Positions 6,722 through 20,000 of a stretch of DNA of 20,000 bases are shown in pieces. A model generated the notes under the pieces. The model saw only the letters and a list, made by a program, of their open reading frames with translations. It was not told where the DNA came from and made no database searches. The stretch's first letter is position 1. Each line of letters starts with the position of its first letter. Origin of the DNA: an uncultured virus (IMG/VR IMGVR_UViG_3300049442_000166) (Duplodnaviria; Heunggongvirae; Uroviricota; Caudoviricetes); the IMG/VR virus record IMGVR_UViG_3300049442_000166; one strand, given 5' to 3'. A program made the translations under genes and the position numbers.

Positions 6722-7615
6722 TTACGCGTAGAAAATTATATAGTTGCAGATAATCGAGGGCTGCACGTTGTTGCTGCCACCACCACCGAAGTTAGAGATC
6801 GTGATGCCGGTCGTCGCATCAGTGATCTGTGCCATGCCTGACTGTACTTTGGACTCTGGGAAATCGAAGTGGTAGTTGCCCCCGCCTTGTAATCCTCCTC
6901 CAGTAAGAGGGTAGCTTATTGCAATCGGCGACATTGTATGAGTGTGACCGGTATCTGAATGTTTGTGTCCCGGATCGGTTAATGCATGATTATGTGTCTG
7001 TAAAAGCTCACTTCCCCCCATAGCCCCGACGGTAGCACCGTCAACCCCGCTGTTGCCTGAGGTGATCCGCCCGGCAGCGACTCCGCCGAGATTGTCTCTG
7101 CCCACCGCCACATTGCCCCTCAAATCTGGAAGGGCATAAGTCGTCGCGCCATCGCCGGCTCCGAATGTGGTGCCGATGACAGAGAAGAGGACCGAGAACG
7201 TGGTGCGTGATATCTCGCTACCGTCGCAGAACAGCCATCCAGATGGTGGGGTGCTCCCACCGAAAGGTACGATAGCGCCGACAGGGACGTAGCCAGAGAT
7301 CGAACCGCCGAAGCCGCTAGTAGGAACACCCGAGCAAGGGTCACAATCGTAGATGACCGCTCCCGCCGCGTCCTCTAGGCGTAAGCGGTACGCAGGCGCC
7401 GCAACGAGGAAGACCTGTGGGAACATTCCCATGCTGTTGGTGACCACGGGATTGGCATTAGCGATCGTGAGAGACACGTCATTATATGTGCTCTGCAGCG
7501 TACCTGTCCCGGTCGCATACGAAAAAAGCTGGGCCCCAACGAGGGGAATGCCGGCGGCATCAACCACTTGCTGGATAGGGAGCACCAGTCTGTTGCCAAT
7601 TGCGGTACCGGACAT
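6722..7615 (-). CDS. tail fiber/tail-collar domain protein (297 aa)
   Basis: N-terminal virion-attachment-type segment (GAQLFSYATGT...TYND...NANPVV), phage tail collar motif PVGAIVPFGGSTPPSGWLFCDGSEISRTTFSVLFSVIGTTFGAGDGATTYALPDLRG, HxH motifs (THNH, GHKH, GHTH), and ending NNVQPSIICNYII. Confidence 0.9.
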   Translation of the reverse strand: MSGTAIGNRLVLPIQQVVDAAGIPLVGAQLFSYATGTGTLQSTYNDVSLTIANANPVVTNSMGMFPQVFLVAAPAYRLRLEDAAGAVIYDCDPCSGVPTSGFGGSISGYVPVGAIVPFGGSTPPSGWLFCDGSEISRTTFSVLFSVIGTTFGAGDGATTYALPDLRGNVAVGRDNLGGVAAGRITSGNSGVDGATVGAMGGSELLQTHNHALTDPGHKHSDTGHTHTMSPIAISYPLTGGGLQGGGNYHFDFPESKVQSGMAQITDATTGITISNFGGGGSNNVQPSIICNYIIFYA

Positions 7616-7618
7616 TCC

Positions 7619-7648
7619 TTGTATCTCTGCCCTCTAACCTAGTATGAT
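7619..7648 (+). promoter_or_regulatory. putative sigma70 promoter for the antisense HNH cassette (TTGTAT-N18-TATGAT)
   Basis: Near-consensus hexamers at 7619-7624 and 7643-7648, 60 bp upstream of HNH ATG 7709. Confidence 0.45.
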
Positions 7649-7650
7649 GC

Positions 7651-7684
7651 GGGACGCGCCCGGTAGTGACCCCGGACACGTCCC
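7651..7684. other. GC-rich stem-loop between the divergent tail-collar and HNH genes
   Basis: GGGACGCGCCCGG / 8-nt loop / CCGGACACGTCCC. The two C-A mismatches on + become G-U pairs on the - strand transcript. Confidence 0.6.
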
Positions 7685-7708
7685 TAAACCCCGCCATGGA
7701 GATGAGCC

Positions 7709-8254
7709 ATGCCGAAGCCTTTCCGTAGTCTACCGCCCCTGATCTTTCTACGCGATAGCCTCATATACGAGCCAGAACTCGGCGCGTACAGATGGCAACG
7801 GTGGCGCCCACGAGAACACTTCCCAACCCAGAAGGGCTGGAAGACTTTCAATAGGCTGTTCGGTGGAACGCCAGCCGGGGGTATCGTCCTCGGATATTGG
7901 ATGATCCACATCAGCGGCAAGAATTACAGGGCGGCGCGGATCGCCTGGATGTTGATGACCGGCGAAGATCCTGGCGCCATCGAGATTGATCACATCAACA
8001 AAAACAGTGCTGACGACCGCTGGGAAAATCTTCGGTTAGCTACGAGCGCGCAGAACTTGCGTAACCGAGGCGTCAACAAGAACAACGGTTCTGGATTGAA
8101 GGGCGCCTATCGCCATCGCAAGCAATGGCACTCACAAATCACAGCAGAGGGCGTCGTTCATTACCTGGGTTCCTTCCCCACCCCTGAGGCCGCCCACGCC
8201 GCCTACGTCGAGGCCGCCCGCCGGCTGCACGGCGACTTCGCGCGGGAGGGCTGA
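7709..8254 (+). CDS. free-standing HNH homing endonuclease with C-terminal AP2-like DNA-binding domain (181 aa)
   Basis: YRAARIAWMLMTGEDP...IDHINKNSADDRWENLRLATSAQNLRN (HNH), followed by SGLKGAY...WHSQI...YLGSFPTPEAAHAAYVEAARRLHGDFA (AP2-like). GGAG RBS. Confidence 0.92.
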   Translation: MPKPFRSLPPLIFLRDSLIYEPELGAYRWQRWRPREHFPTQKGWKTFNRLFGGTPAGGIVLGYWMIHISGKNYRAARIAWMLMTGEDPGAIEIDHINKNSADDRWENLRLATSAQNLRNRGVNKNNGSGLKGAYRHRKQWHSQITAEGVVHYLGSFPTPEAAHAAYVEAARRLHGDFAREG

Positions 8255-8257
8255 GCG

Positions 8258-8632
8258 ATGACCGACGCCGATCGTCAGCGCTTGGTGAACATCCTCGGCA
8301 TGCTCGGGAGCGCGCACCAGGGCGAGCGTGACGCAGCTGGGCTCCAGGCCGAGGCGTTCCGCAATAAGCACGGGCTGAGCTGGGCGGAGATGATCAATGG
8401 GAAGACGGTCTATGTCGGTGGCAATCCACCATGGCACACGGTCCCGGTCGAGAAGACTGTCTACGTCGATCGCATCGTTTACGTGGACCGCACATTCGGT
8501 AGACAGACTATTCAGCGATGGAGGCGGTCGGTTGCTCTACCTTGGTCTTGGTGTGATTTAATCGCCTTCGGTGGCATCGCTTTCATTGTGGTCACCATCG
8601 CCTATGGTGCGGTCCTTGGGTCTTGGCATTAA
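8258..8632 (+). CDS. phage hypothetical protein with C-terminal transmembrane helix (124 aa)
   Basis: N-terminal motif RLVNILGMLGSAHQGERDAA...GLSWAE and hydrophobic C-terminus LIAFGGIAFIVVTIAYGAVL. Its stop overlaps the convergent gene's stop at TTAA 8629-8632. Confidence 0.7.
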   Translation: MTDADRQRLVNILGMLGSAHQGERDAAGLQAEAFRNKHGLSWAEMINGKTVYVGGNPPWHTVPVEKTVYVDRIVYVDRTFGRQTIQRWRRSVALPWSWCDLIAFGGIAFIVVTIAYGAVLGSWH

Positions 8633-10683
8633 GGGGGCGGCACTGGTGGTGGCGGTTGAGGAACTTCTCCGCCGAACTTCCCCAGCGCCCCAGTGACACG
8701 CCGCTGTTGCAAGCGGCCTCCCACCCAATTCATCCCGCGCTGTGCGACATGTATTCCACCCGCTGCCGCAAGCGCAGGGAAGAGGCTACCCGATGCTCTG
8801 CCTTCGGCGAGAGCGCCACCCAGCATAAGCAGCTTGTTGCCGAACAGGTGCAGCGTTCCGCCGATCACACCGCGATTGGCGGCGTCTTTCAGCCACGCTT
8901 TCTCAATGTTGGAATACCCCCGGGATCTGGTTGGACTATCCAGCAGGGATTTGACTTGGCGCCGAAAGGCCGTCGTCGTGTCGCCCTCAACGCCCTCCGC
9001 GCGCTGCCACATACGTTCGATGTCGTCCATCTTCCGGTATATCGACCACGCGCCACGTGCGTTGCCTAATGCCTGGAACCCGGCCGTGCCGCCGGTCGTG
9101 TCGCCAACACCTGCGTTGTCTATCGAGTGACGCAGATCGCTTTGTATCTCCAGGAGTTCCTTCCCTTCTTCGGTTAGGCGCGGCTTGTACTCTCTGCCAA
9201 TGAGCCTCGTCAGACCTTCATCCATCTCCTGCACGGCATTCAACGTCAGCGGCTTGCCTTTGAGTGCTTGCCACCGCTGCACCATGGCATCGACTTCGCT
9301 TGGCCCAACAGTGGCCGCGCCGGCTTCTGTCTTTGGTTGGACGCGTTTGGTGATGTTATCGATGAAGGCGTCAGTGAACTGCGGCGTCAGTGTGCCACCG
9401 GTATCGTTGGCGGTCTTATAGAGATCATTGGACCACGCCTTCGCGTCTGCCGCCGTCCTGACCCTGGTCGGCGGTGGCGTGGCCGCTGGCGTCGCCGCAG
9501 TCGGTGATGTGGCGGTAGGCTCATAAACCTCCGATTGTCCGGTCGTCTGGTTCATGCGGAACTGACGCCCGGGCTGGAACACCTCATCCGGATTGACGGG
9601 TCGCCACCCACCCGTTGTCCCGGTGGTAGTGGACGGCGTGATGCGCAACCCCTCTCGTCCTGTGCCATCGAAGGCCACAGGCACCCCACCCCACTGCTGC
9701 CCCTTATCGTCATACATCATGCCGTCTTTGACACGGACGATCGGCACGATCTTCTTCCCACCATCGGCGACAAGCTCGACCTTGTGTCCTGCTGCCAAAG
9801 CTTGGTCGGCGGCGCTGGACATGGCATTGCCGCCCTTAGTCATATCGAAGCCGGTGCCAGTCTCCCCGGCGTTGAGCATCCAGTCTCTGCCGAAGAAGGT
9901 TGGCTTGGCCTGTGGCGTGGCCCCCGGTTCAGGCGGCGGCGGTGCTGTGTCGTGCTGGATCAGTTGATGCATGCGCTCCAGGTCGGTCATGCCGGCCGGG
10001 CGCGGTGGCGCCGTTAGTTCTTGAATGGTGCTTGGCCTTGGTGGTAGCGGCTCGGATGGCGTTGCCTCGTGCATGAAGGGCGCGCGCTGCTCGGTAAAAG
10101 GCACGCGCAACTCTGTCCCAGGAATGGGCGGACGCATGGGTGGGCGCAGGTGGCCTACGCCGGTCGGGAACGCTTCCGGCCCCGCTGCTAGCTCGTGGCC
10201 GAGTGAACCTGGGGTGAGTTCTCCGGAGATGCCCAACCACGGGACGTCAAGCGATCCCAGGTGAATGTCGGGGGTCGCTTCGACGACTGCCTGCTGGCCC
10301 CCGCGCAACAGGGCGCCGCCAGCGCGGAGTACGGTTTCGGCACCGGCAATGACCGGATTATAGAACGGAGCCGTTATCAGATCTCCGGGAACTCTCGGGA
10401 TGTGCGGAACCCCCTCAGCGCCTTCGACGCCTGCCTGGAAGATGCGCTTGTACGGTTCGTAGTTCGGCGTGTAGTTGAGTTCCGCCGTCGGCGGGGGGAA
10501 TAGCTCGTCCTTGGTCGCCCGATGTGGCTCCTGGGGCGGCGGCGCCTGGGTGGTGGTGAAGCTGGGGAAGAAGTCGGTGGTCGCGGCCGCTGGCGGCGCT
10601 GCTGTTGGTGGTGGCGCCTGAGCTGGTGCTGGTGCCGGTGCCGGTGCCGTCGTGCCGAAGCTGGGGAAGAAGTCCTCTGCCAT
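8629..10683 (-). CDS. putative internal virion/DNA ejection protein (684 aa)
   Basis: ATG at 10683 is coupled to the upstream TGA (TGATG). Pro/Ala/Thr-rich N-terminus with repeated DFFPSF and a helical C-terminal domain. It is the third gene of an ejection-protein triplet, so the assignment is positional. Confidence 0.65.
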   Translation of the reverse strand: MAEDFFPSFGTTAPAPAPAPAQAPPPTAAPPAAATTDFFPSFTTTQAPPPQEPHRATKDELFPPPTAELNYTPNYEPYKRIFQAGVEGAEGVPHIPRVPGDLITAPFYNPVIAGAETVLRAGGALLRGGQQAVVEATPDIHLGSLDVPWLGISGELTPGSLGHELAAGPEAFPTGVGHLRPPMRPPIPGTELRVPFTEQRAPFMHEATPSEPLPPRPSTIQELTAPPRPAGMTDLERMHQLIQHDTAPPPPEPGATPQAKPTFFGRDWMLNAGETGTGFDMTKGGNAMSSAADQALAAGHKVELVADGGKKIVPIVRVKDGMMYDDKGQQWGGVPVAFDGTGREGLRITPSTTTGTTGGWRPVNPDEVFQPGRQFRMNQTTGQSEVYEPTATSPTAATPAATPPPTRVRTAADAKAWSNDLYKTANDTGGTLTPQFTDAFIDNITKRVQPKTEAGAATVGPSEVDAMVQRWQALKGKPLTLNAVQEMDEGLTRLIGREYKPRLTEEGKELLEIQSDLRHSIDNAGVGDTTGGTAGFQALGNARGAWSIYRKMDDIERMWQRAEGVEGDTTTAFRRQVKSLLDSPTRSRGYSNIEKAWLKDAANRGVIGGTLHLFGNKLLMLGGALAEGRASGSLFPALAAAGGIHVAQRGMNWVGGRLQQRRVTGALGKFGGEVPQPPPPVPPP

Positions 10684-13595
10684 CACGGCGCCGCCGCTGG
10701 TTTCTGATGGCCGCCAGGAGCCCACTGCGGGTCGACCCTGCGAATGATCGCCTCAGCCTCGGCTCGCTGCTCTGATGTGAGCTTGCCGTACCACTTCGTC
10801 AGCTCGTCGGCGCTACGACCGTTTAAGGCGTCGGTCGCCAGCTGATACACAGCCGGCGCATGGATGCCCTTTGGGTCTTTCCACTCCGCTTCCAATTCCG
10901 GTGATGCGGGCACATAGGCTGCCGGCATACCGCCCTCCTTCGTGTTCCGCCACGCCATGTATCGCGGTGTGAGCTTCGCCGTGAGCCCTTGTGCGTGGTC
11001 TAGGATTGCCTGATTGCTGACCAGTCCTGCGTGGAGCAAGTCGCTAATTGTTGCCTCCGGCATACCGGCGTGAGGCGAAGCGTGAGCGTTCATCTCGGCG
11101 AGGCCGATGCCATGCACTCCGCCCATCTGTGCTTCCTGCTGCAACGCGAGCTTGGTGAACTCCTTGACAGCAGCATCTCGATCGCCGGCAGAGGAGAAGT
11201 CTAAATGGAGGTAGTCCTTCATATCCTCCTGCCAGCCCTTCGATAGCCATGTATCGCCGAGACGGATCAGGTTGTTGCGCCATTCGGTGCCACTGCCTGC
11301 GGCAATGTTAGGCAGGCGGTGCAGGAGGTCTAAGGTGGTCTGGTTCACTGAATTGGCCTGCGTCGCCTGCGCCTGGAGCACGGCGTTCGTTTTGAAGTCC
11401 TCCTCGGTGCGCTTCTCGTCCGCAGAGGTAAACGTCTCCTGGCCCGGCATCGCCTGAGGCTGCACCGCTGTTGGTGGTCCGGATGTTCCTGGCGGCTGCG
11501 ATATGGTTCCAGCTGGTGGCGCTGTAGCCGCTGGTGGTGTGGTGGCTGGTGGTGTGGTGGCTGGTGGTGTTTGCCCAGCTCCTGGCCCCGCCACCGGGGT
11601 GCTGCCGGGCGGCAGGCCGCGCGCCGCCAGGATGTGGGTGGGGGTGATCGCATCGGTGCCGGCCACCCTCCTGGTATAGGCCACGAAGCCGCGCGCCGTA
11701 GTGTCGCCGCCCAGCTGCGGATTTGCCGCGACGGCAGCCTTCAGCTCCGGGATATCCGCGAGCTTCGTGTTGGACGGATAGCGCGCCAGCGCCGCCACAC
11801 CACCCACACCCAGCCAATGCGCCGCGAACAGCGACGCGCCGGTCGGTCGCATGCCGTTCTTGATGAGTGCGGCTGCGTTGTCGGAGGTGAGCCCGGCCAT
11901 CGCCTCGCGCTCGTAGTCGCCGTTGTTGGCGGTGATGTAGCGATCGGTGATCTGCTGATCGGTGAGATTGGTCGTCAGCTCCGGATGCTGCTTCTTCATC
12001 TGGGTGGCGAATGTGCCCGGCATGAACTGATACACGCCATTGGCGCCGGAGCCCTGCTTGTTCGGCTGCGCAACACCGCCGCTCTCGTGACCACCCACGG
12101 CGGCCATGTACCTCGTGTAGGGGTTGCTCTGGTCGGCTGCTCCCGGCCCCGGCGGTGTCGCAGGCGCATTCGGAGCCCCCGGCACGGGGGCGGTTGGTGC
12201 AGGAGCAGTTGACGCTGGCGGTCTGCCTGTCGCGCCTCCCGGTATCGTGCCCGGCGCCATCATCGGCGAACCAGACCGGGCGGCGATTTCGGATGGTGTC
12301 GCCACCTCCGGCACGAACCTGCCGTTGACGATCCATCCGCGGTCGGTCTTCGTGGGCGCCCTGTCAGCGGACAGGTCTGGATTGAAGACATATTGCAGCC
12401 CGTTCCACGAGTAGCTTTTCTGCGACATCTCGCGGTCCCAGGCGTCTGTCTGGTCCTTGGTTTTGAGCCCTCGGAGAGCCGCCATCTGCAGCTCAGGGTG
12501 GTCGAACAGCATCCTGCCGTCGGCGGTGCTCAGGTAGCCCTGGCGCCACGCCAGATCGATCGCCTTGTTCCAGCTGGCCGGATCGGTGACGCTGCTCTCC
12601 AGCTGCGATAGATACTCGGTGCGCTGCTTACGTAACTGCTCTGCCGCCTCTATGGACCGCTCGGGGGCGAAGGTTATCGCCCGGCGATAGGCCATATCCA
12701 GCTCACGCGGCACGAAGGCACCGATAGCTTGGTTGTAGACGCCGGTTCTCGCGCCGGTCACGCTCTCCCTGGGGTCAGTGGCGCCGGGCCGCGGAGCGGC
12801 TGGTGCGGCAGGCGCAGCGTTGGGAGGGGTGGCCTGGGCGAGCTGCGCCGACGCAGGTGGGCGGGCGAGCACGGCTGGTGCTGGAGCGGGTGGCGGCGGC
12901 TGCACTTGCGGGTGGCTGGCTAGGTACTGCTCCTTGGGGACCATCTGCCCAGTATCAGGGTCTGCTATCATGGCGTTCGGGTCGGCGAGCGCGCGGTCAA
13001 CGGCGGGGCTCAGGGGTCTCCTGGCTGGCTCTGTGGTCGTGGCCCCCATCATGAGGGGGCTGTCAGCGGACACGCCGCCGAAGCCCAGCTGAGGGGCCGC
13101 TGACGCCAGCATGGCGCTACCCGGCGGCTGATACCCTGGGCCCGGCTGGGAACCCGCCCCAGGTCGCCCAGCTGTGTAAAGCTGACGGGTGCTGCCGCCG
13201 CCCTGGTCTGTGTCCGGACTGTCGCCGATAGGATGTGCAGCACCACCACCACCACCTCCGCCACCACCACCTCCGCCACCACCACCGCCGAAGGGGGATT
13301 GTTCGTTAGAGATCCCGGAGTTGGGGTCTGGGGGCTGCAGTGTCCCCATCTTCAGTCGTGTCATCTCGGCATCGATCGCCGCCTTGGTGCCCAGCGCCCC
13401 GTAGTAGGGCACCTGCGCCCGGTTCAGCTCGGCCTGCGATCGCAGCACATCAGGCTGCTGCCGCTCGGTCGCCGTCTGCGCCTCGATCAGCGGGATACCC
13501 GCATACGTCTTGGAGACGTCGGCCATCGACTGCGGCAGGGTCGAGGTGAGGTACTGGGCACCCCGGAACGGCATGTCGAGCAGTGACCAGCTCAT
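10683..13595 (-). CDS. large ejection/internal virion protein with lytic transglycosylase (lysozyme-like) domain (970 aa)
   Basis: AVGGHESGG...SGANGVYQFMPGTF...LFAAHWLGVGG...AANPQL (about 11660-12120) matches SLT/lysozyme-like motifs, with the catalytic Glu in ES. It directly follows the gp7-like gene. Confidence 0.8.
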   Translation of the reverse strand: MSWSLLDMPFRGAQYLTSTLPQSMADVSKTYAGIPLIEAQTATERQQPDVLRSQAELNRAQVPYYGALGTKAAIDAEMTRLKMGTLQPPDPNSGISNEQSPFGGGGGGGGGGGGGGGGAAHPIGDSPDTDQGGGSTRQLYTAGRPGAGSQPGPGYQPPGSAMLASAAPQLGFGGVSADSPLMMGATTTEPARRPLSPAVDRALADPNAMIADPDTGQMVPKEQYLASHPQVQPPPPAPAPAVLARPPASAQLAQATPPNAAPAAPAAPRPGATDPRESVTGARTGVYNQAIGAFVPRELDMAYRRAITFAPERSIEAAEQLRKQRTEYLSQLESSVTDPASWNKAIDLAWRQGYLSTADGRMLFDHPELQMAALRGLKTKDQTDAWDREMSQKSYSWNGLQYVFNPDLSADRAPTKTDRGWIVNGRFVPEVATPSEIAARSGSPMMAPGTIPGGATGRPPASTAPAPTAPVPGAPNAPATPPGPGAADQSNPYTRYMAAVGGHESGGVAQPNKQGSGANGVYQFMPGTFATQMKKQHPELTTNLTDQQITDRYITANNGDYEREAMAGLTSDNAAALIKNGMRPTGASLFAAHWLGVGGVAALARYPSNTKLADIPELKAAVAANPQLGGDTTARGFVAYTRRVAGTDAITPTHILAARGLPPGSTPVAGPGAGQTPPATTPPATTPPAATAPPAGTISQPPGTSGPPTAVQPQAMPGQETFTSADEKRTEEDFKTNAVLQAQATQANSVNQTTLDLLHRLPNIAAGSGTEWRNNLIRLGDTWLSKGWQEDMKDYLHLDFSSAGDRDAAVKEFTKLALQQEAQMGGVHGIGLAEMNAHASPHAGMPEATISDLLHAGLVSNQAILDHAQGLTAKLTPRYMAWRNTKEGGMPAAYVPASPELEAEWKDPKGIHAPAVYQLATDALNGRSADELTKWYGKLTSEQRAEAEAIIRRVDPQWAPGGHQKPAAAP
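11530..11570. repeat. 15-bp coding tandem repeat (GCTGGTGGTGTGGTG, about 2.7 copies; TTPPA linker)
   Basis: Direct repeats at 11530, 11545 and 11560. Confidence 0.85.
13242..13289. repeat. NCC triplet run encoding 16 consecutive Gly on the - strand
   Basis: ACC/TCC/GCC triplet run of 48 bp. Confidence 0.9.
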
Positions 13596-13676: not shown

Positions 13677-14480
13677 CTGAAGTGGCCGGAAGAAGCCGAG
13701 GTTCTGCAGCGCAGCCCCTCCTGGCGTGGTCCCTGTCGGGTCTGACGCGTAGCCGTAGTTGGTGGGGTCGTAGCTGCTGCTGGTCTGGCCACCGAAGGCG
13801 GTATCGGCGGCGCTGACGAGGCCGCCGACGCCCTTGAAGAGGTCGCCGACCCCACCAAGGGCCTTATTGACGCCGGCTTGCTGACCCATGATGCCGGCGC
13901 CGGCCGAAGCCGCGAGACCGGAGGCCGTCTGACCAACCTGACCACCAGCGGTGCCGCCGATCTGCCCCAGCTGGCCCGCTGTCGTCACGCCGATGCCGCT
14001 GAGCTTGGTGAGCGCGTCCATGTAGCTGCCGAAGTTGCTGGCGGAGTAGCCTCCGGCATATTTCCCGAGATCTGCCAGCTGGCCGCCCGACAAGCTCATG
14101 CCCTTCGCCGCCGCGGAGCGATCCATGGTGTCGAGGTTCTGCTGCAGCGGGAATGTGTAGAAAGGGGTCTTGGTGAACTGGTTGTAGGATGCGAGGGCTC
14201 CGGAGCCGCCTGCGGCCCCCGCGGCGCCCGCGGTGTTGCCCAGGCCCAGGAACTGTTCCACGCCGCCCAACGCTTCCTGGCCGCCGGTAATCCACGGCTG
14301 CATGTTGGTCTGCGCAGTGCCGTAGACGGCCTGCTGGAACGCCATCGCCTTGTCCAGCTCTTCCTTCTGCGCCGCCGCGGCTTTGCCAGCCGCATTGCCA
14401 CCCATGATGCCCCCGAGGATGCCGGAGCCCGCAGAGGCGACCGAACCCACCGCACCGATGATGCCGACCGTGGCTGCCAT
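13674..14480 (-). CDS. DNA transfer/ejection protein, P22 gp7-like (268 aa)
   Basis: Gly/Ala-rich hydrophobic N-terminus, MQPWITGGQEAL, and FTKTPFYTFPLQQ...RSAAAKGMSLSGGQLADLGKYAGGYAS, the characteristic gp7-like motif. It follows the GNAT gene as in P22-like podoviruses. Confidence 0.8.
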   Translation of the reverse strand: MAATVGIIGAVGSVASAGSGILGGIMGGNAAGKAAAAQKEELDKAMAFQQAVYGTAQTNMQPWITGGQEALGGVEQFLGLGNTAGAAGAAGGSGALASYNQFTKTPFYTFPLQQNLDTMDRSAAAKGMSLSGGQLADLGKYAGGYSASNFGSYMDALTKLSGIGVTTAGQLGQIGGTAGGQVGQTASGLAASAGAGIMGQQAGVNKALGGVGDLFKGVGGLVSAADTAFGGQTSSSYDPTNYGYASDPTGTTPGGAALQNLGFFRPLQ

Positions 14481-15022
14481 TATGCGATCCTCTTGCGGTA
14501 GCTGACTTCCACCGGCCGGTAGCCGAGGAACCGGAACAACACACCGAGGGTGCGCCCGCCGCGCCCCGGCTTCACATGCAGCTTGACGCGGTTGTGGACC
14601 TCGGTGACGCTCTTCTCGCGCAGCAGATCCTCAGCCACCCGGAACAGCTTCACCCCGAGCCAGCCTGACCGATGCGCCGGGTCGATGAAGAACACATCGG
14701 CTTCGGCGATCGTGAGGGCGTAGTGCATGTGCGGCGCGAGGAAGTAGACCACGTAGCCGACCAGCTCGCCGGCCTTGCGCACGGTGACACACGCCTCAAT
14801 GCCGGCCAGTTCGAGCCTCTCGAACATAGTCCAATTGATAGCGAGCGGTGTCGTTAGATCGGCGCTGGCCTCGGCATAATGCTGCAGGAACAGGTGCTCG
14901 GCATCAGTGTCGCCGCGCAGCCAGCTGAACCTCTCTTCGTGGAACGAATAGCCGCGATGTCGCGCCAGGAGCCTGGGTGGCGGCGGCAGCACCGTGGTGT
15001 GGGTTTGCAAGGCAAAGGACAT
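14480..15022 (-). CDS. GNAT-family acetyltransferase-like protein (180 aa)
   Basis: TVRKAGELVGY...HMHY...ADVFFIDPAHRSGWLGVKLFRVAEDLL...LFRFLGYRPVE covers GNAT motifs A and B. The position between tail and ejection genes is typical for podoviruses. Confidence 0.85.
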   Translation of the reverse strand: MSFALQTHTTVLPPPPRLLARHRGYSFHEERFSWLRGDTDAEHLFLQHYAEASADLTTPLAINWTMFERLELAGIEACVTVRKAGELVGYVVYFLAPHMHYALTIAEADVFFIDPAHRSGWLGVKLFRVAEDLLREKSVTEVHNRVKLHVKPGRGGRTLGVLFRFLGYRPVEVSYRKRIA

Positions 15023-15078: not shown

Positions 15079-15762
15079 CTACCCGTCCGCCAGCCACGCG
15101 ATCAAGCTGCCGTAGGCCGAGATGGCCCCGGTGAAGGTTGCCTTGATGTTGAGATAGACCGGCCAGGGCCCCGGCAGTGGCGCCACGATCGGGATCAGCT
15201 GTGCGCAGGTGCCGACCGACAGATCCACCCCGAGGCCGCCAGGACTGGCACCACCACCGAACCAGCCGGTGGCAAATGCCCCAGGCGCCGTCTCGATCAC
15301 CGCGGTTGTCAACCCGACCGAGGCCTGCGCGATCGTCACCGAGCCTGAGCCGGTCAGATAGATCGTGCCGAACAGGACGTAGGTGCCGGCGTTCACAGTC
15401 AGCGTGGTGATCTGTGTTGCTGTGCCGGAAGTCAACGCGACGGCTCCAGCCTGGGCTACAGCCGCGCCGTCCGGCACCCGCAGCAAAGCGACACCCGCAG
15501 CGCCGTTGGCGCCCTGGGCGAGCCTGACGTTGTCAGCGAGGCCAGTGGTGAGGGTGTTCACCTCGCTGTTGAGCACACCGATGGCGTGGGTGTTGGTGGT
15601 GAGCTGATCCTGCAACCCCGTGGCGGTGGTCAGGCTGTTGCCGTGTGACGAGGTGAGCCGCTGCAGGTATTGCAGGAACTCGAACGTGGCATAGACCCCG
15701 TCGCTGCCGGGTTGGGCACGGGCGATCGGCCGGTCGCCGTAGGCGATGGTCGTGCCCGACAT
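15079..15762 (-). CDS. putative tail needle/knob structural protein (gp26 position; 227 aa)
   Basis: N-terminal PIA...ATFEFLQYLQRL, a short coiled coil (LQDQLTTN...LNSEVNTLTTGL), and a beta-rich C-terminal domain. It lies between the gp10-like and GNAT genes. Confidence 0.55.
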   Translation of the reverse strand: MSGTTIAYGDRPIARAQPGSDGVYATFEFLQYLQRLTSSHGNSLTTATGLQDQLTTNTHAIGVLNSEVNTLTTGLADNVRLAQGANGAAGVALLRVPDGAAVAQAGAVALTSGTATQITTLTVNAGTYVLFGTIYLTGSGSVTIAQASVGLTTAVIETAPGAFATGWFGGGASPGGLGVDLSVGTCAQLIPIVAPLPGPWPVYLNIKATFTGAISAYGSLIAWLADG

Positions 15763-16298
15763 CAGGTCATCCCCTGGTTGGCATCGATGTAGACACCCAC
15801 GATATTGCGGCGGATCGGGTCAGTGCATTCGAGCTTCACCATGCGCTCGCGGCTCTGGCCCATCTTCAGCCAGCGCAGCCGGCTCAGGTATTCGCCGAGC
15901 CTGCCGATCGAGCGCGGCTTCACCAGCGTGCTCCAGCTTCGGCCACCGTCGTCGCTGACGGTGAGGCGCCACTGCGGATCGGCCGCCGGCCCCGCCCCTT
16001 CGGTGATGAAGTACGGCGTGCAGCCTGGGCCGCCTGTCGCACCGACCACGCCGGTTGGCGCAAACCCGCCGCCAGTGCCGGCGTTCCCGGCAAAGTCCAG
16101 CGGTGGTCCGCGTGTTGTCAGATAGACTGCCGGCGGCCCGGCGAAGGGCAGGGCGCCGTTATCGCCCATCCAGGCAGGGGTGCCGCCTGTCGCGATGAAC
16201 TTGCGCCGGTTGGCCTCGACGGACAGATCGAGGAAGCCGGGTGTCGGCTCGAACACCAGCTCTGCATCAATCAGTGTCCGGGGAGGGGGGAGCGCCAT
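15762..16298 (-). CDS. short gene carrying the gp10-like C-terminal module (178 aa)
   Basis: DAELVF...DLSVEANRRKFI segment followed by DPQWRLTVSDDGGRSWS...SIGRLGEYLSRLRWLKMGQSRER...TDPIRRNIVG, the usual C-terminus of gp10-like hub proteins. TGATG coupling at both ends. Confidence 0.8.
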   Translation of the reverse strand: MALPPPRTLIDAELVFEPTPGFLDLSVEANRRKFIATGGTPAWMGDNGALPFAGPPAVYLTTRGPPLDFAGNAGTGGGFAPTGVVGATGGPGCTPYFITEGAGPAADPQWRLTVSDDGGRSWSTLVKPRSIGRLGEYLSRLRWLKMGQSRERMVKLECTDPIRRNIVGVYIDANQGMT

Positions 16299-17950
16299 CA
16301 GGCCATACCCTGTTCGTCATCGATATAAATACCAATAATGTTCCGTCTGACCGGATCGGTACACTCCAGCTTGATCGAGCGCTGCCGGAAGTGCCCCATC
16401 TTCAGCCAGCGCAGCCGCGTCTTGTAGGCGCCGGTCACGCCGATGTCGCGTGGCTTTACCAACGTCGACCACGTCCGCGATCCGTCGTCGCTGACCGACA
16501 ATCGCCATTGCGGCCTGGACGCGGGGCCAGCCGCTTCGGTGATGAAATACGGCGAGCAGCCCGGTGGTGGGCTCGCCAGTCCCAGCGGGCCATTGCTGAT
16601 AGCGAAGCTGCCGCCAGCACCGTTGTTGTTGGCGAAAGTGGCCGGGTCCGTGCCAAGCGCCGAGAGGTAGACCGGTGGCACTTGGCCGCTGAAGGGGACG
16701 CTGCCGTTCGCTGTCATCCACTGCGGCGTGATGGTGCTGCTGACGAACAGGCGACGGTTGGCTTCCACTGTGAGATCCATGAAGCTGGCGGTGTCGCTGA
16801 ACACCAGCTCGGCATCGGTCAGGGTCTGGCCAGATACTGCGAAGGATATCCCGCAATTCGTATAGGCTGGGCCACGGCCGGCGACGCGCCACTCGACGGC
16901 TTGACCCTCAAGCACCCAGTCTGTGACGCCGTAACCCCTTGGAAGAAGTCCAGGTGAAGTGTTGGTGGTAAGACTGTCCTCGTTTCCGGCAATCAGCTCG
17001 TAAACCCACGGCAATACCCGGACCTCAGGCGCGTCCGGCGTCATAACCATACCGGTCCATGGCGGCGTGCTGGTGACGAGATGCTGGAAGTTGCTTGCGT
17101 TGGTATCGAATGGGGCTGCTGGGTTGGCGAGGTTTTTGAAGACAGTGACATCGCCCAACAGGAAGCCAGGACTGGTGAAGCCGGTGCCGGATATAGAGAG
17201 CGTGGCGCTGACTGGCGTTGGTGCGAGCGCCCACCACACCTCCATGACGTAATTCTTGGATGCAGGCGGAATAGCGCTCGGCATGTACACGGCCGATGTC
17301 TGTCGAGATAGCCGGGTGAACGTCAGGCCGGCGAAGTTGATCGATGTGACGGCCGGTGCCGTTGGGGGTGTGCTGCCAGCCGCTCCCGCATAGCCGACGA
17401 CGCCGACCAACAGCACCGAGTTGGCGGCGGTGGTCGTCACCGTGAAAGAGTTATTTATTGCAGGATAAGTACTGAACGTATTGTCATAGATCGACGCATC
17501 CGTCGCCCCGACTAACATGAGCCCATAGTACATCCCCGTCTGCTGATCACCCGAAGCAGTTGATGGCACATTCTGGACGAATACAGGAGCAAGCGGCAGT
17601 GGCGTCGCGCTCTCGTTGTATCGCGCCCACAGCCGGAACGTGTCGGATGATGCTGCGGAGGTGTTGGTGTAAGCGACCCTGCCGTCGCGTGACTGTTGCC
17701 ATGTGAAGCGGCTTGTTGGTGTTCCATCTAAGGTGATGACGCCATGCGCTGGCGGGGTGACCACATCGATATAGACGTGATTGTTGTTGGTGATGGTGCT
17801 GAGATTATTGTCGTGCGACGTGCTGATGCTGATGACGAAGCCGGTGAAAACGTACGTCCCCCCTGGGGGGATGTCCCCAGCGAAAAAACCGATGCTGAGA
17901 TTATAGGGGTTCAGCAGACCGGTGCGGACGTCTGCGGGCGGGACTGCCAT
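16298..17950 (-). CDS. long gene carrying a second gp10-like C-terminal module plus N-terminal adhesin-like domains (550 aa)
   Basis: The last ~175 aa are paralogous to 15762-16298 (PQWRLSVSDDGSRTWS...TDPVRRNIIG). The N-terminal part has a cadherin/CSPG-repeat-like segment (PPAHGVITLDG...FTWQQSRDGRVAYTN...SDTF) and a beta-rich domain (TTTAANSVLLVGV...EVWWALAP). Confidence 0.8.
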   Translation of the reverse strand: MAVPPADVRTGLLNPYNLSIGFFAGDIPPGGTYVFTGFVISISTSHDNNLSTITNNNHVYIDVVTPPAHGVITLDGTPTSRFTWQQSRDGRVAYTNTSAASSDTFRLWARYNESATPLPLAPVFVQNVPSTASGDQQTGMYYGLMLVGATDASIYDNTFSTYPAINNSFTVTTTAANSVLLVGVVGYAGAAGSTPPTAPAVTSINFAGLTFTRLSRQTSAVYMPSAIPPASKNYVMEVWWALAPTPVSATLSISGTGFTSPGFLLGDVTVFKNLANPAAPFDTNASNFQHLVTSTPPWTGMVMTPDAPEVRVLPWVYELIAGNEDSLTTNTSPGLLPRGYGVTDWVLEGQAVEWRVAGRGPAYTNCGISFAVSGQTLTDAELVFSDTASFMDLTVEANRRLFVSSTITPQWMTANGSVPFSGQVPPVYLSALGTDPATFANNNGAGGSFAISNGPLGLASPPPGCSPYFITEAAGPASRPQWRLSVSDDGSRTWSTLVKPRDIGVTGAYKTRLRWLKMGHFRQRSIKLECTDPVRRNIIGIYIDDEQGMA

Positions 17951-19647
17951 CAGGTGCTCGGGATCAGTGACCAGCTCGACCCGTCATTGCCGATCGGATT
18001 GGTGCTGGACCATGTCAAGGATGTCGCGGTCAGATGCACATCGCCATAGCCGGCCGTGCTGATCCAACACTGGATCGCGTGGGTCGCGGTGTCGCAGGTG
18101 ATGCCAACCCACACCCAGGACGACCACACCGTCCACTGATACTCGGCGTCGACGATCGCGGCACCGCTGGCATCCTTGGCGCGCACGATGATCTGGTTGG
18201 CACCCACGCTGCTGGTGTTGTTGGCGATCTTGATCGTCAGGTTGGTGTTGCCGAAGGTGAGGCCGCGGGTGGTGCCATCGTTCGGCATGAACACCCAGTC
18301 ACTGAACACGAAGTTGCTGTAGGTCGTCGGCAGCCCCAGTAGCGCTCCTGGTGTCGCGATCTGGGTCGGCGTCGTCATAGTGATACCGGCCGGACAGAAC
18401 TCGTTGAGGATCTGCTGCGTGTAGGGCGCCCCCATACCGCTCTCGACGTCGATCTCGAACTTGCGCATGAACACGCGACGGCGGTCGCTGTGCAAAGGCG
18501 GTCCGACCACCAGCGCCCGCATCGTGCTGTCGAACTCGCGGAACACGTTGTTGTTGAGCTGGTCGACCCGGCCCGACAGGCTGTCACCCATCAGCAGCTC
18601 GGGGTAGCGCTCGATTGATGAGCTGTTGTTGACCACGCAGTTGACCCGCCAGCGGCCGATCGAGCTGTCGTGGTTGTCGGCAGTCCAGCTTTCGCGCTCG
18701 TGCCAGCGCTTGGTCGCCAGATCCAACACCCAGGTGGCGTGGGCAGCGGGGAAGGTGATGGCGATCATCTTGTGGCCCATCACCGTGTAGCTGAACGCCT
18801 TGGTGTAGTAGTGACCGGTGTACTTCGCCCACTGCGTTTCGATCGCGTGGTTGCTCTGCCGTTCCGGCGCGAACCCATTTAGTTTGTAAAACACCAGATC
18901 GTCGCCGAGGAAGAACATCGTGTTGTCTTCCAGCACGATGCTGTAAGGCGCCATCAGTCCACGCTGCACCAGGGCGCCCGAGCTGCGCGAGAACGGGAAG
19001 GCCGGGGTCGGGTTGCCGGCGTCGTACCACACTTCGAGGCGCCGCTCGCCGCAGATGAACAGCTGCTCGTGGCAGTTGGCCGCGGCGACGACGAGGTCGC
19101 TGGTGGCTTCCTTGCTGGCGAACATCGCGCCATTGAGCGGATCGGTGCCATTCCACTGCGGCGGCGAGATGAAGAACTGCTGCGTGCCACGGCGGATGAA
19201 CACAAAATACGTGTCGAAGTAGGTGACAGTGGTGCTGGGGAAGAAGTTAGGATCGGTGATCTGGTGGATGCCGGTCGTCGTGTTGTAGGTCCACCCTGTC
19301 ACGCCATCCACCCAGCAGATCGTGACGCCGTTGTTGTCGATGCTGCAGCCGTTGGTGCTGACCGAGGTGTGACCGAGATACACCGAGACACCATTGTGCT
19401 CGATGCGGAACAGGCTGTCACCGGTCAGCGCGTAGACCTTGCCGCCCATCGAGGTGAAATTGATGATCGGGCCGCTGCCGCAGTTGGCGAACGGCGATGT
19501 GCCGGGGTGCATGAAGATGCCGATGTTCGCCTTGCTGCGAGCGTCGGGGATCTCCTGCTCGGCGAACATATTGACCACCCGGCTCGCGTTCAGCGGCAGG
19601 GAATTCGTCGTGTAACTCTGCGCGATCCAGTCCGCTACTTGCGGAAT
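17950..19647 (-). CDS. packaged DNA stabilization/tail hub protein, P22 gp10-like, lacking the usual C-terminal module; start uncertain (candidate ATT at 19647, first canonical GTG at 19578)
   Basis: QSY...SLPLNASRVVNMFAE, ITDPNF...VTYFDTYFVF, FASKEATSD, LEVWYDAG...FPFSR, SNHAIE, TWVLDLATKRWHER and FEIDVESGMG are gp10-family landmarks. Confidence 0.85.
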   Translation of the reverse strand: MPQVADWIAQSYTTNSLPLNASRVVNMFAEQEIPDARSKANIGIFMHPGTSPFANCGSGPIINFTSMGGKVYALTGDSLFRIEHNGVSVYLGHTSVSTNGCSIDNNGVTICWVDGVTGWTYNTTTGIHQITDPNFFPSTTVTYFDTYFVFIRRGTQQFFISPPQWNGTDPLNGAMFASKEATSDLVVAAANCHEQLFICGERRLEVWYDAGNPTPAFPFSRSSGALVQRGLMAPYSIVLEDNTMFFLGDDLVFYKLNGFAPERQSNHAIETQWAKYTGHYYTKAFSYTVMGHKMIAITFPAAHATWVLDLATKRWHERESWTADNHDSSIGRWRVNCVVNNSSSIERYPELLMGDSLSGRVDQLNNNVFREFDSTMRALVVGPPLHSDRRRVFMRKFEIDVESGMGAPYTQQILNEFCPAGITMTTPTQIATPGALLGLPTTYSNFVFSDWVFMPNDGTTRGLTFGNTNLTIKIANNTSSVGANQIIVRAKDASGAAIVDAEYQWTVWSSWVWVGITCDTATHAIQCWISTAGYGDVHLTATSLTWSSTNPIGNDGSSWSLIPST

Positions 19648-19673
19648 GACACATACTCCGATAAAGATTGTCT

Positions 19674-20000
19674 ATGGTTTACAAGAGACTGCCATCTCGG
19701 CGACAGCTCAGCCAGTTGTTCAGCTACGACCCAGACACCGGGCTTCTGACGCGCAGGTCCGGCAAGGTGGTCAAACCGCAACCGAGCCAGAAATACACAT
19801 CGGTTCCGATGGGTCATAACACCAGATTTCAGGCCCATCGGATCATTTGGAAGATGGTCACTGGCCGCGAGCCGACCATACTCGACCACATCAATCGGGA
19901 TGGGAACGACAACCGGTGGTCGAACCTCAGACAATGCACTTGGTCGCAGAGCAACGCCAACCGTCGGAGCATAGACCGAGGCAGCGCCCTTAGGGGGGTC
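19674..20000 (+). CDS. second free-standing HNH endonuclease (3' truncated by the window edge; absent from the ORF track)
   Basis: Manual translation from ATG 19674 gives MVYKRLPSRRQLSQLFSYDPDTGLLTRR...FQAHRIIWKMVTGREPTILDHINRDGNDNRWSNLRQCTWSQSNANRR...LRGV, open to the end of the window. Confidence 0.9.
   Translation, partial: MVYKRLPSRRQLSQLFSYDPDTGLLTRRSGKVVKPQPSQKYTSVPMGHNTRFQAHRIIWKMVTGREPTILDHINRDGNDNRWSNLRQCTWSQSNANRRSIDRGSALRGV

Follow-up and report, generated by a model that had tools for sequence, protein, structure and literature searches.

Podovirus tail hubs are usually seen as conserved single-chain scaffolds with separately docking fibres or spikes. Here we describe a locus at which a tail hub of the P22 gp10 family is divided between genes, its C-terminal part being present at the end of each of the two genes that follow. 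The locus lies in a 20,000-nucleotide (nt) stretch, hereafter the window, from an uncultured soil virus of the Caudoviricetes (IMG/VR record IMGVR_UViG_3300049442_000166). The genes are called A to D, and residues of A are numbered from its GTG codon. The features are as follows.

17950-19578 (to 19647 from ATT), minus strand: gene A, hub N-chain, 542 amino acids (aa) from GTG
18430-19578, minus strand: A residues 1-383, N-terminal platform segment and beta-propeller core
17953-18429, minus strand: A residues 384-542, first two thirds of the LamG_3-like insert
17948-17952, minus strand: TGATG stop/start overlap of A and B
16298-17950, minus strand: gene B, partner 1, 550 aa
16829-17950, minus strand: B residues 1-374, distal region with a cadherin-like immunoglobulin (Ig) domain and a beta-sandwich
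16301-16828, minus strand: B residues 375-550, last third of the LamG-like insert and hub C-terminal module
16296-16300, minus strand: TGATG stop/start overlap of B and C, also a breakpoint where variant contigs diverge
15762-16298, minus strand: gene C, partner 2, bare form, 178 aa
15993-16298, minus strand: C residues 1-102, last third of the LamG-like insert
15765-15992, minus strand: C residues 103-178, hub C-terminal (platform) module
15760-15764, minus strand: TGATG stop/start overlap of C and D
15079-15762, minus strand: gene D, 227 aa, context outside the split

A preliminary description of this locus, made from the sequence alone, had proposed that an ancestral hub gene gained a lectin- or LamG-like insert, was split within it and had its C-terminal half duplicated. 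The reading frames lie where it had placed them: FEIDVESGMG corresponds to A residues 374-383 and ends at base 18430, and the extension of about 160 aa comprises the 159 residues that remain before the stop at 17950. TGATG overlaps join A to B, B to C and C to D, and the M-A-[VL]-P-P start reads MAVPP in B and MALPP in C.

In PHROG profile searches, A residues 2-388 matched positions 26-406 of the 486 positions of phrog_578 (E 8.8e-71), the head closure Hc3 family of P22 gp10, and C residues 105-176 matched positions 402-472 (E 3.1e-7). The two matches are exactly complementary. B residues 484-544 matched phrog_19101, and B residues 375-549 were 62% identical to C residues 7-177 (109/177, E 1e-72). 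In a tblastn search of a phage collection (50,697 records), 42 records matched A, none of them past about residue 395, and 33 matched C at residues ~103-176, inside the same annotated hub genes as the matches to A. MW824394.1, for example, matched A at 7512-8531 and C at 8541-8753, and the gap between the two matches was 9 nt in Vibrio phage 41E34.2. Such complementarity within one hub family is far beyond chance. The solved Pan3 hub (9vyg_M) gave the same picture, aligning to A residues 2-302 and, through its own residues 367-437, to C residues 102-171. The SDDG-type module described as missing from A and ending both B and C maps to the missing gp10 C-terminus.

The AlphaFold2 (AF2) model of A had a predicted local distance difference test score (pLDDT) of 89.1, with low confidence solely at residues 361-397, a stretch expected to lie against the C-terminal module (C-module) that A lacks. 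Foldseek searches with this model, suggested in the preliminary description, returned Pan3 9vyg_M (E 1.9e-21; template modelling score TMt 0.64), P22 gp10 8eap_D (1.4e-18) and Sf6 gp8 7sg7_S (1.3e-17), with P22 8u10 and the Pam1 hub also among the top matches. A has both the profile match and the beta-propeller fold of the solved hubs; it does not combine the N- and C-terminal platform segments in one polypeptide, and profile positions 402-472 sit on B and C. A local Pfam scan gave no PF11134 match for A even at E 10, and Pfam returned nothing useful for A, C, the tail of A or the head of C at the same threshold. Homologues of A bear the precomputed PF11134 label, and P0133 matches the local PF11134 model at 32 bits; Pfam alone would miss hub A. 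According to the Sf6 structure report (PMC9728967), the Sf6 hub is an interrupted six-bladed propeller with an apical domain made of its N- and C-terminal extensions, so A alone lacks half of the apical domain. Reading the C-module as an Asp-box propeller blade was rejected, since that report assigns the C-terminal extension to the apical, lamin-B1-like domain.

The start codon of A is uncertain, either ATT at 19647 or GTG at 19578. The preliminary description had extended A to 19647, which is the position of the homologue's ATG in a related viral locus (L001), 23 codons farther upstream; the window codon there is ATT, and the frame opened by GTG starts at 19578. Homology to L001 begins exactly after the ATT codon, a GGAG motif stands 8 nt upstream, and a GTG start would cost A 23 conserved residues. 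A plus-strand HNH endonuclease gene (19578-20000 with L017:42-380; phrog_99, E 8e-36) lies between an adaptor-like gene and A, two genes that directly adjoin in L001. Further HNH genes stand among the structural genes at window 7709-8254 (plus strand; phrog_99, E 4.5e-53) and L017:3579-4001 (minus strand; phrog_3377, E 2.9e-47), giving three free-standing HNH genes within the 31-kb record.

Conservation of the split and the LamG-like insert

The junctions were compared over 15700-18500 with Logan contigs of four other soil or rhizosphere runs (X3-X6, from 18 runs of which none was listed as RNA), no meaning being attached to the parts without contig cover in X4-X6. The A/B junction at 17950 was bridged in all four runs with 0 differences and 0 gaps, the B/C junction at 16298 was bridged in X4 and X5, and no insertions or deletions were listed in these contigs over this range. 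Among the 14 related viral loci that we found, the split lies at the same residue, after a conserved W.L.P motif, in L001 (87% identity), L002 (81%) and L003 (67%). The A/B junctions themselves differ, with TGA, 8 nt and ATG in L001, TAA, 1 nt and ATG in L002, and a stop, 43 nt and ATG in L003. The differing spacers and frames exclude both an indel and a conserved recoding signal, and the division of the hub within its insert, as originally proposed, is a conserved feature.

The same end point recurred more widely. Of 88 clusters of A homologues, 41 had core and tail without a C-module and another 41 were canonical, with core and C-module; 37 of the 41 A-type clusters ended at most 11 residues from the tail's end. 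At a threshold of E 0.001, an exhaustive search with C returned 3,021 representatives. Of the 150 best, 58 were partner-type proteins (135-891 aa) with the C-head and C-module and no core, and the module stood at the very C-terminus in 55 of the 58. In A, the pairwise ratio of nonsynonymous to synonymous substitution (dN/dS) was 0.17 over the core and 0.23 over the tail; in B it was 0.15 over the N-domain and 0.23 over the C-half, and C gave 0.26 when compared with the C-half of L002's second partner. With values of 0.15-0.4 across all pieces, these comparisons show every piece to be under purifying selection.

These data bear on the possibility that the split stems from faulty assembly or sequencing, or marks a newly formed pseudogene, the real gene being one long open reading frame (ORF). 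A and B are offset by a single base at TGATG, and hubs of Gluconacetobacter prophages (45% identity) are single chains of ~1,206 aa, with ORFs of 1,204-1,219 aa at 9 of 11 genome loci. In L018 and L024 (the same as L007 and L010; Gluconacetobacter liquefaciens and G. tumulisoli) the ~1,206-aa ORF is broken, apparently by frameshifts, after 785 and 664 aa. These breaks fall elsewhere than the window's cut and, unlike the conserved split, are probably frameshifts in decaying prophages or assembly errors. Against an error stand the identical junction in all four runs, the common split residue in three diverged relatives that each have their own ATG, the shared end point of 37 A-type clusters and the purifying selection on all pieces, and this possibility is effectively refuted. 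Relatives with a continuous ORF, named in the preliminary description as a sign against a split, were only distant ones; among them, the Gluconacetobacter prophages are basal to the split clade described below.

It is also highly improbable that A and B are joined in translation into a single chain by programmed frameshifting or reinitiation-coupled recoding at TGATG. The one-base stop/start overlap is present at all three junctions, but there is no slippery heptamer at the A/B junction, the relatives would need different shifts for their 8-, 1- and 43-nt spacers and other frames, and TGATG also links C with D, an unrelated gene. The partners end in a conserved ...QGM, which is coded as CAGGGnATG just before TGATG (window 15760-15790 and 16296-16320), which places an AGGG Shine-Dalgarno-like motif ~8-10 nt ahead of the next gene's start. 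An intein or intron between the pieces was rejected, as all of them have start and stop codons of their own, with nothing in between.

By profile comparison, the A tail (residues 384-542) and the C head (residues 1-102, equivalent to B 375-476) are separate pieces of a single LamG_3-like unit. When a profile built from 47 A tails was aligned with the LamG_3 part of 18 units, the hhalign probability was 96.5% (E 7e-10, 128 columns), and tail positions 9-142 fell on unit positions 18-160. The 18 units came from six multi-unit proteins, of which P0136 alone was scanned with Pfam and matched LamG_3, the other five having been picked by C-head periodicity. In large proteins the C-head repeats every ~240 residues, directly after each Pfam Laminin_G_3 match, and a distant hub, P0079, has a Pfam LamG_3 domain (PF13385, E 5e-15) between core and C-module, at the same insertion site. 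Neither the A tail nor the C head matched PF13385 in Pfam, even with the threshold set at E 10; homology of the insert to LamG_3 units was detected in the profile-profile comparison, in line with the LamG-like character first suggested for it. On this evidence the A/B cut is inside the inserted domain, A holding its first two thirds and B and C each its last third together with the hub C-module. In the single-chain prophage hub L008, a nested region starts at position 557/558, the exact equivalent of the window's cut.

Relatives of the hub form a graded series. Canonical relatives are single chains of ~470 aa; P0133 (775 aa) is a single chain with the insert only; P0126 (972 aa), P0130 (989 aa), P0134 and P0132, which as a group measure 972-1,286 aa, carry extra domains nested between the two insert parts. 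We built a quick maximum-likelihood tree from the core only (71 rows, midpoint root), with support from the Shimodaira-Hasegawa-like approximate likelihood ratio test (SH-aLRT). Canonical hubs lay outside, and single-chain forms with the insert, including those of the Gluconacetobacter prophages, were basal to the split clade. One 41-row clade (support 97) held all 38 split forms together with two canonical forms and one single-chain form nested within it, which would be secondary changes. The tree fits an order in which the insert came first and the split followed.

Predicted assembly and the partner genes

The complex model of A with C reached an interaction prediction score from aligned errors (ipSAE) of 0.89, against 0.06 for the best of three controls. 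At least 94% of contacts were shared between the A+C runs, with a pLDDT of 81 or more for the partner. The lowest-error contacts join A 422-430 to C 10-19 as a strand addition in the LamG-like insert, which is absent from solved hubs, and in the hub platform part A 352-382 and A 18-23 contact C 136-178. The strand complementation that had been put forward as a way to rebuild both hub and insert is thus predicted for A and C, and the model supports binding without showing it.

These contacts, together with the profile matches, also bear on whether B and C could be ordinary side fibres with a hub-like C-terminal domain that dock elsewhere, A working as a C-terminally truncated hub. The C-module is found on many proteins with varied N-termini, and the phage has another tail-fibre-like gene elsewhere in the window, at 6722-7615. 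In solved hubs, however, the C-terminal segment builds the apical/platform domain with the N-terminus (PMC9728967), so that A alone lacks part of a domain. Moreover, A 361-397 is disordered without a partner in the AF2 model, the complex model puts C's module on A 352-382 and A 18-23, the phrog_578 positions of A and C are exactly complementary, and none of the 41 A-type proteins keeps a C-module of its own. We consider side fibres of this kind very unlikely.

We instead favour, at a probability of roughly 0.8, the reading that the hub of this P22-like podovirus consists of two polypeptides, A and one partner, joined by fold complementation, with B and C as alternative partners. The observation in the preliminary description is confirmed and its interpretation supported, each testable step having held; the mixing of subunits (for example 3+3) that it also raised is a possibility outside these steps. 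In the mechanism that we propose, A would contribute the beta-propeller and, at its N-terminus, a platform segment, and would end with the first two thirds of a LamG_3-like sandwich placed just ahead of the hub's C-terminal module. One partner chain per hub subunit would donate the remaining sandwich strands and the ~75-residue C-terminal module, which would join the N-terminal extension to form the apical/platform domain, as in solved hubs. The two tandem, translationally coupled partner genes would compete to complete the hub. The ~374 N-terminal residues of B (Ig/cadherin-like and beta-sandwich) would form an integral side appendage that probably serves in host-surface binding, and C would be a bare anchor. 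The conserved C-half would act as a universal plug, so that distal domains could be exchanged by recombination at its boundary.

Duplication of the C-half extends to relatives. The window has a long partner, B, and the bare C; L002 has partners of 550 and 547 aa and L003 of 561 and 583 aa, and L001 has one partner of 567 aa and the start of a second, ended by the contig edge. Of the three-gene layout, the two partner genes recur in L002 and L003, but none of L001-L003 has a bare partner. Other bare or short partners are P0121 (177 aa, 50% identity) and P0103 (233 aa, with an M start).

The N-domain of B is 88% identical to that of L002's second partner. For the C-half of B, in contrast, the nearest sequences (80%) are those of the first partners in L001 and L002, and for C the nearest (80%) is the C-half of the second partner in L002. 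Because the N-domain and C-half of B have different closest kin, N-domains and C-halves have been reassorted. Variant contigs part from the window exactly at 16829, the boundary of B residues 374/375, in X5 and X6 with the same consensus. Others leave the window sequence at the B stop (16296); these occur in X3 and X6, where the loose ends share one consensus. Co-occurring strains appear to carry other cassettes at these two positions.

Modelled alone, B had an overall pLDDT of 63, with confident regions at residues 60-110 and 140-290 and a poor C-half. Its Cadherin_3 match (E 0.0027) is below the Pfam cut-off, and that of the homologue P0090 is above it (E 6e-8). In a wide VIA-align search, the B model matched Ig and beta-sandwich folds of a generic kind, best of all a CSPG4 cadherin-like fragment (Z 8.3); the receptor-binding protein head of the lactococcal phage Tuc2009 scored Z 5.5, too weak to name a function. 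With the N-region of B, an Atlas structure search returned rows naming Cadherin_3 at TM below 0.3 only, and an Atlas feature search gave no usable match. The N-region looks like globular Ig and beta-sandwich domains rather than a rope, and its position and fold class hint at a possible adhesin role.

C could, alternatively, be a functionless remnant, an internally deleted second partner heading for loss, with the hub truly split and completed by B. C begins with MALPP, much as B does with MAVPP, and then runs straight into the C-half, which fits an in-frame deletion of the distal region; its closest relative, the second partner of L002, is full length (547 aa), and L001, L002 and L003 are without a bare partner. 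However, C has an intact frame, its own start codon and TGATG coupling on both sides, and its dN/dS against that homologue is the same as for other pieces. The bare P0121 is independent, the short P0103 has a start codon of its own, and the A+C model is strong. On balance we regard a functionless C as unlikely.

Several points weigh against the favoured reading. The A+C score may partly reflect likeness to solved single-chain hubs, and the ipSAE mark, which 116 of 157 solved complexes attained, as did 2 of 215 mismatched pairs, carries over only roughly, our own alignments having been used for A+C. C could be a recent deletion product kept non-adaptively, pairwise dN/dS averaging both lineages. 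The poor fold of B's C-half alone is expected if A is needed, yet it is no proof, and the fold matches of B's distal region (Z at most 8.3, TM below 0.3) are weak and generic. The data show the split and its conservation, the purifying selection, the profile mapping and the evolutionary series; from these we infer physical assembly (through the model only), the use of both partners in virions and the adhesin function. ATT replaces ATG beside the inserted HNH gene, so the hub chain may be poorly translated or N-terminally truncated in this genome. Finally, the virus record is a fragment, 51% complete by CheckV.

Relation to known hubs and implications

The closest precedent is the split nozzle of the Pseudomonas podophage A1002, described by cryo-EM (PLoS Biol 2026; PMC13730344). 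There, the nozzle-base gp42 comprises platform-N, most of the propeller and the tip, and the C-terminus of the nozzle-rope gp39 supplies propeller-C and platform-C, its N-terminal rope docking fibre dimers. As in A1002, an ancestral single hub appears to have been divided into two chains, with the partner's C-terminus completing the fold; for the window this completion is a prediction only. The N-terminal part of the A1002 partner serves the fibre apparatus. The A1002 structure provides a precedent that such an assembly works.

The two systems differ in several respects (PMC13730344). A1002 has one partner and, by gp numbers, the fibre genes gp40 and gp41 between gp39 and gp42; the window has two tandem partners right after the hub gene. 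The A1002 partner gives two incomplete blades and platform-C (residues 469-620), the window partner ~75 hub residues and a third of the insert. The window's cut lies inside a LamG_3-like insert, with distal domains reassorted, and the cut point in A1002 is a different one. None of the 42 A-matching or 33 C-matching records was a phage of the A1002 kind, the presence of A1002 relatives in the collection being unchecked, and the A1002 chains were not among our PDB matches, from libraries that may predate their release.

With the P22 gp10, Sf6 gp8, Pan3 and Pam1 hubs (PF11134, phrog_578; 8eap, 8u10, 7sg7, 9vyg, 7eeq), the window shares the profile and propeller of A, a C-module in B and C that equals the hub's last ~70 residues, and a position between adaptor-like and needle-like genes. 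Those hubs, unlike the window's, have no LamG-like insert and consist of one chain of 440-472 aa. Their receptor-binding tailspikes are separate proteins docked non-covalently (PMC9728967). The Gluconacetobacter prophages (L008, L019 and others), P0133, P0126 and P0130 have the same core and the same LamG-like insert at the same site. In the single chains of the Gluconacetobacter and P0126/P0130 type, however, the distal domains are nested at the window's cut point within one polypeptide that has no alternative partners, which means one fixed decoration per subunit. Searches of open-access literature for a split tail hub returned the A1002 paper but no account of alternative partner genes, which is not proof of absence. 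Tandem alternative partners with swappable distal domains appear to be new; the split nozzle as such is known from A1002.

Two other partner arrangements were seen. Seven cluster representatives (P0138, P0140, P0142, P0146, P0155, P0158 and P0227) combine a LamG-like unit, in some with FN3, a proline linker, ~55-78 residues from the end of the hub core (A 306/329-383) and, finally, the C-module; P0138 and P0146, whose sequences were inspected, begin with M. This make-up implies another split point, before the last blade and closer to that of A1002 gp39; matching N-chains were not found. In P0239-P0242 (457-467 aa), a B-like distal region (44-49% identity) is fused directly to the C-module with no C-head, which suggests split hubs without the LamG-like insert. 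When viral contigs were scanned with P0239, no locus was confirmed, and a companion hub N-chain of that type was not seen.

Gene D stands directly 3' of the partner genes in all complete relatives, its homologues in L002 and L003 (50-53% identity) coming right after the last partner gene. It had no PHROG or Pfam match; among named Atlas clusters an Sf6-type needle knob came nearest (0.85), which is a lead only, and D is probably a tail needle or plug. The adaptor-like gene upstream of A has a weak match to phrog_637 (E 2.9e-4). Only gene order argues for a hexameric ring below the head-to-tail adaptor. Between D and the ejection-protein genes lies a GNAT acetyltransferase gene (14480-15022, minus strand; Pfam E 2.6e-5, phrog_1249 E 3.4e-9); a 180-aa ORF of L003 (11846-12388) occupies the same place. 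In a 970-aa ejection-type protein (10683-13595, minus strand), residues 489-643 form a transglycosylase segment (phrog_4067); the protein also contains 16 glycines in a row and long linkers rich in proline and alanine.

A bolder extension, which we put forward tentatively and hold to be somewhat doubtful, is that the hub is a programmable socket: a portable anchor would carry any distal domain into the virion, tandem partners would co-assemble in one hexamer, and the arrangement would have arisen at least twice in the gp10 family, with different cut points. If so, such a phage would display two different receptor-binding arms, or one arm diluted by the bare cap C. Host-range cassettes would then be installed by fold complementation rather than by docking of separate fibres, and arms would be swapped by recombination at the anchor boundary.

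For annotation, the locus carries a warning that 'truncated' hub genes and the 'hypothetical' genes that follow them can be two halves of one subunit. The ~175-residue C-half is a candidate universal anchor for engineering podovirus display. The natural series from canonical hub to insert, nested insert, split and duplicated forms records how a structural protein may be fragmented into a modular attachment system. In the phage described here, interchangeable genes would deliver the receptor-side decoration in trans, as an integral part of each hub subunit.

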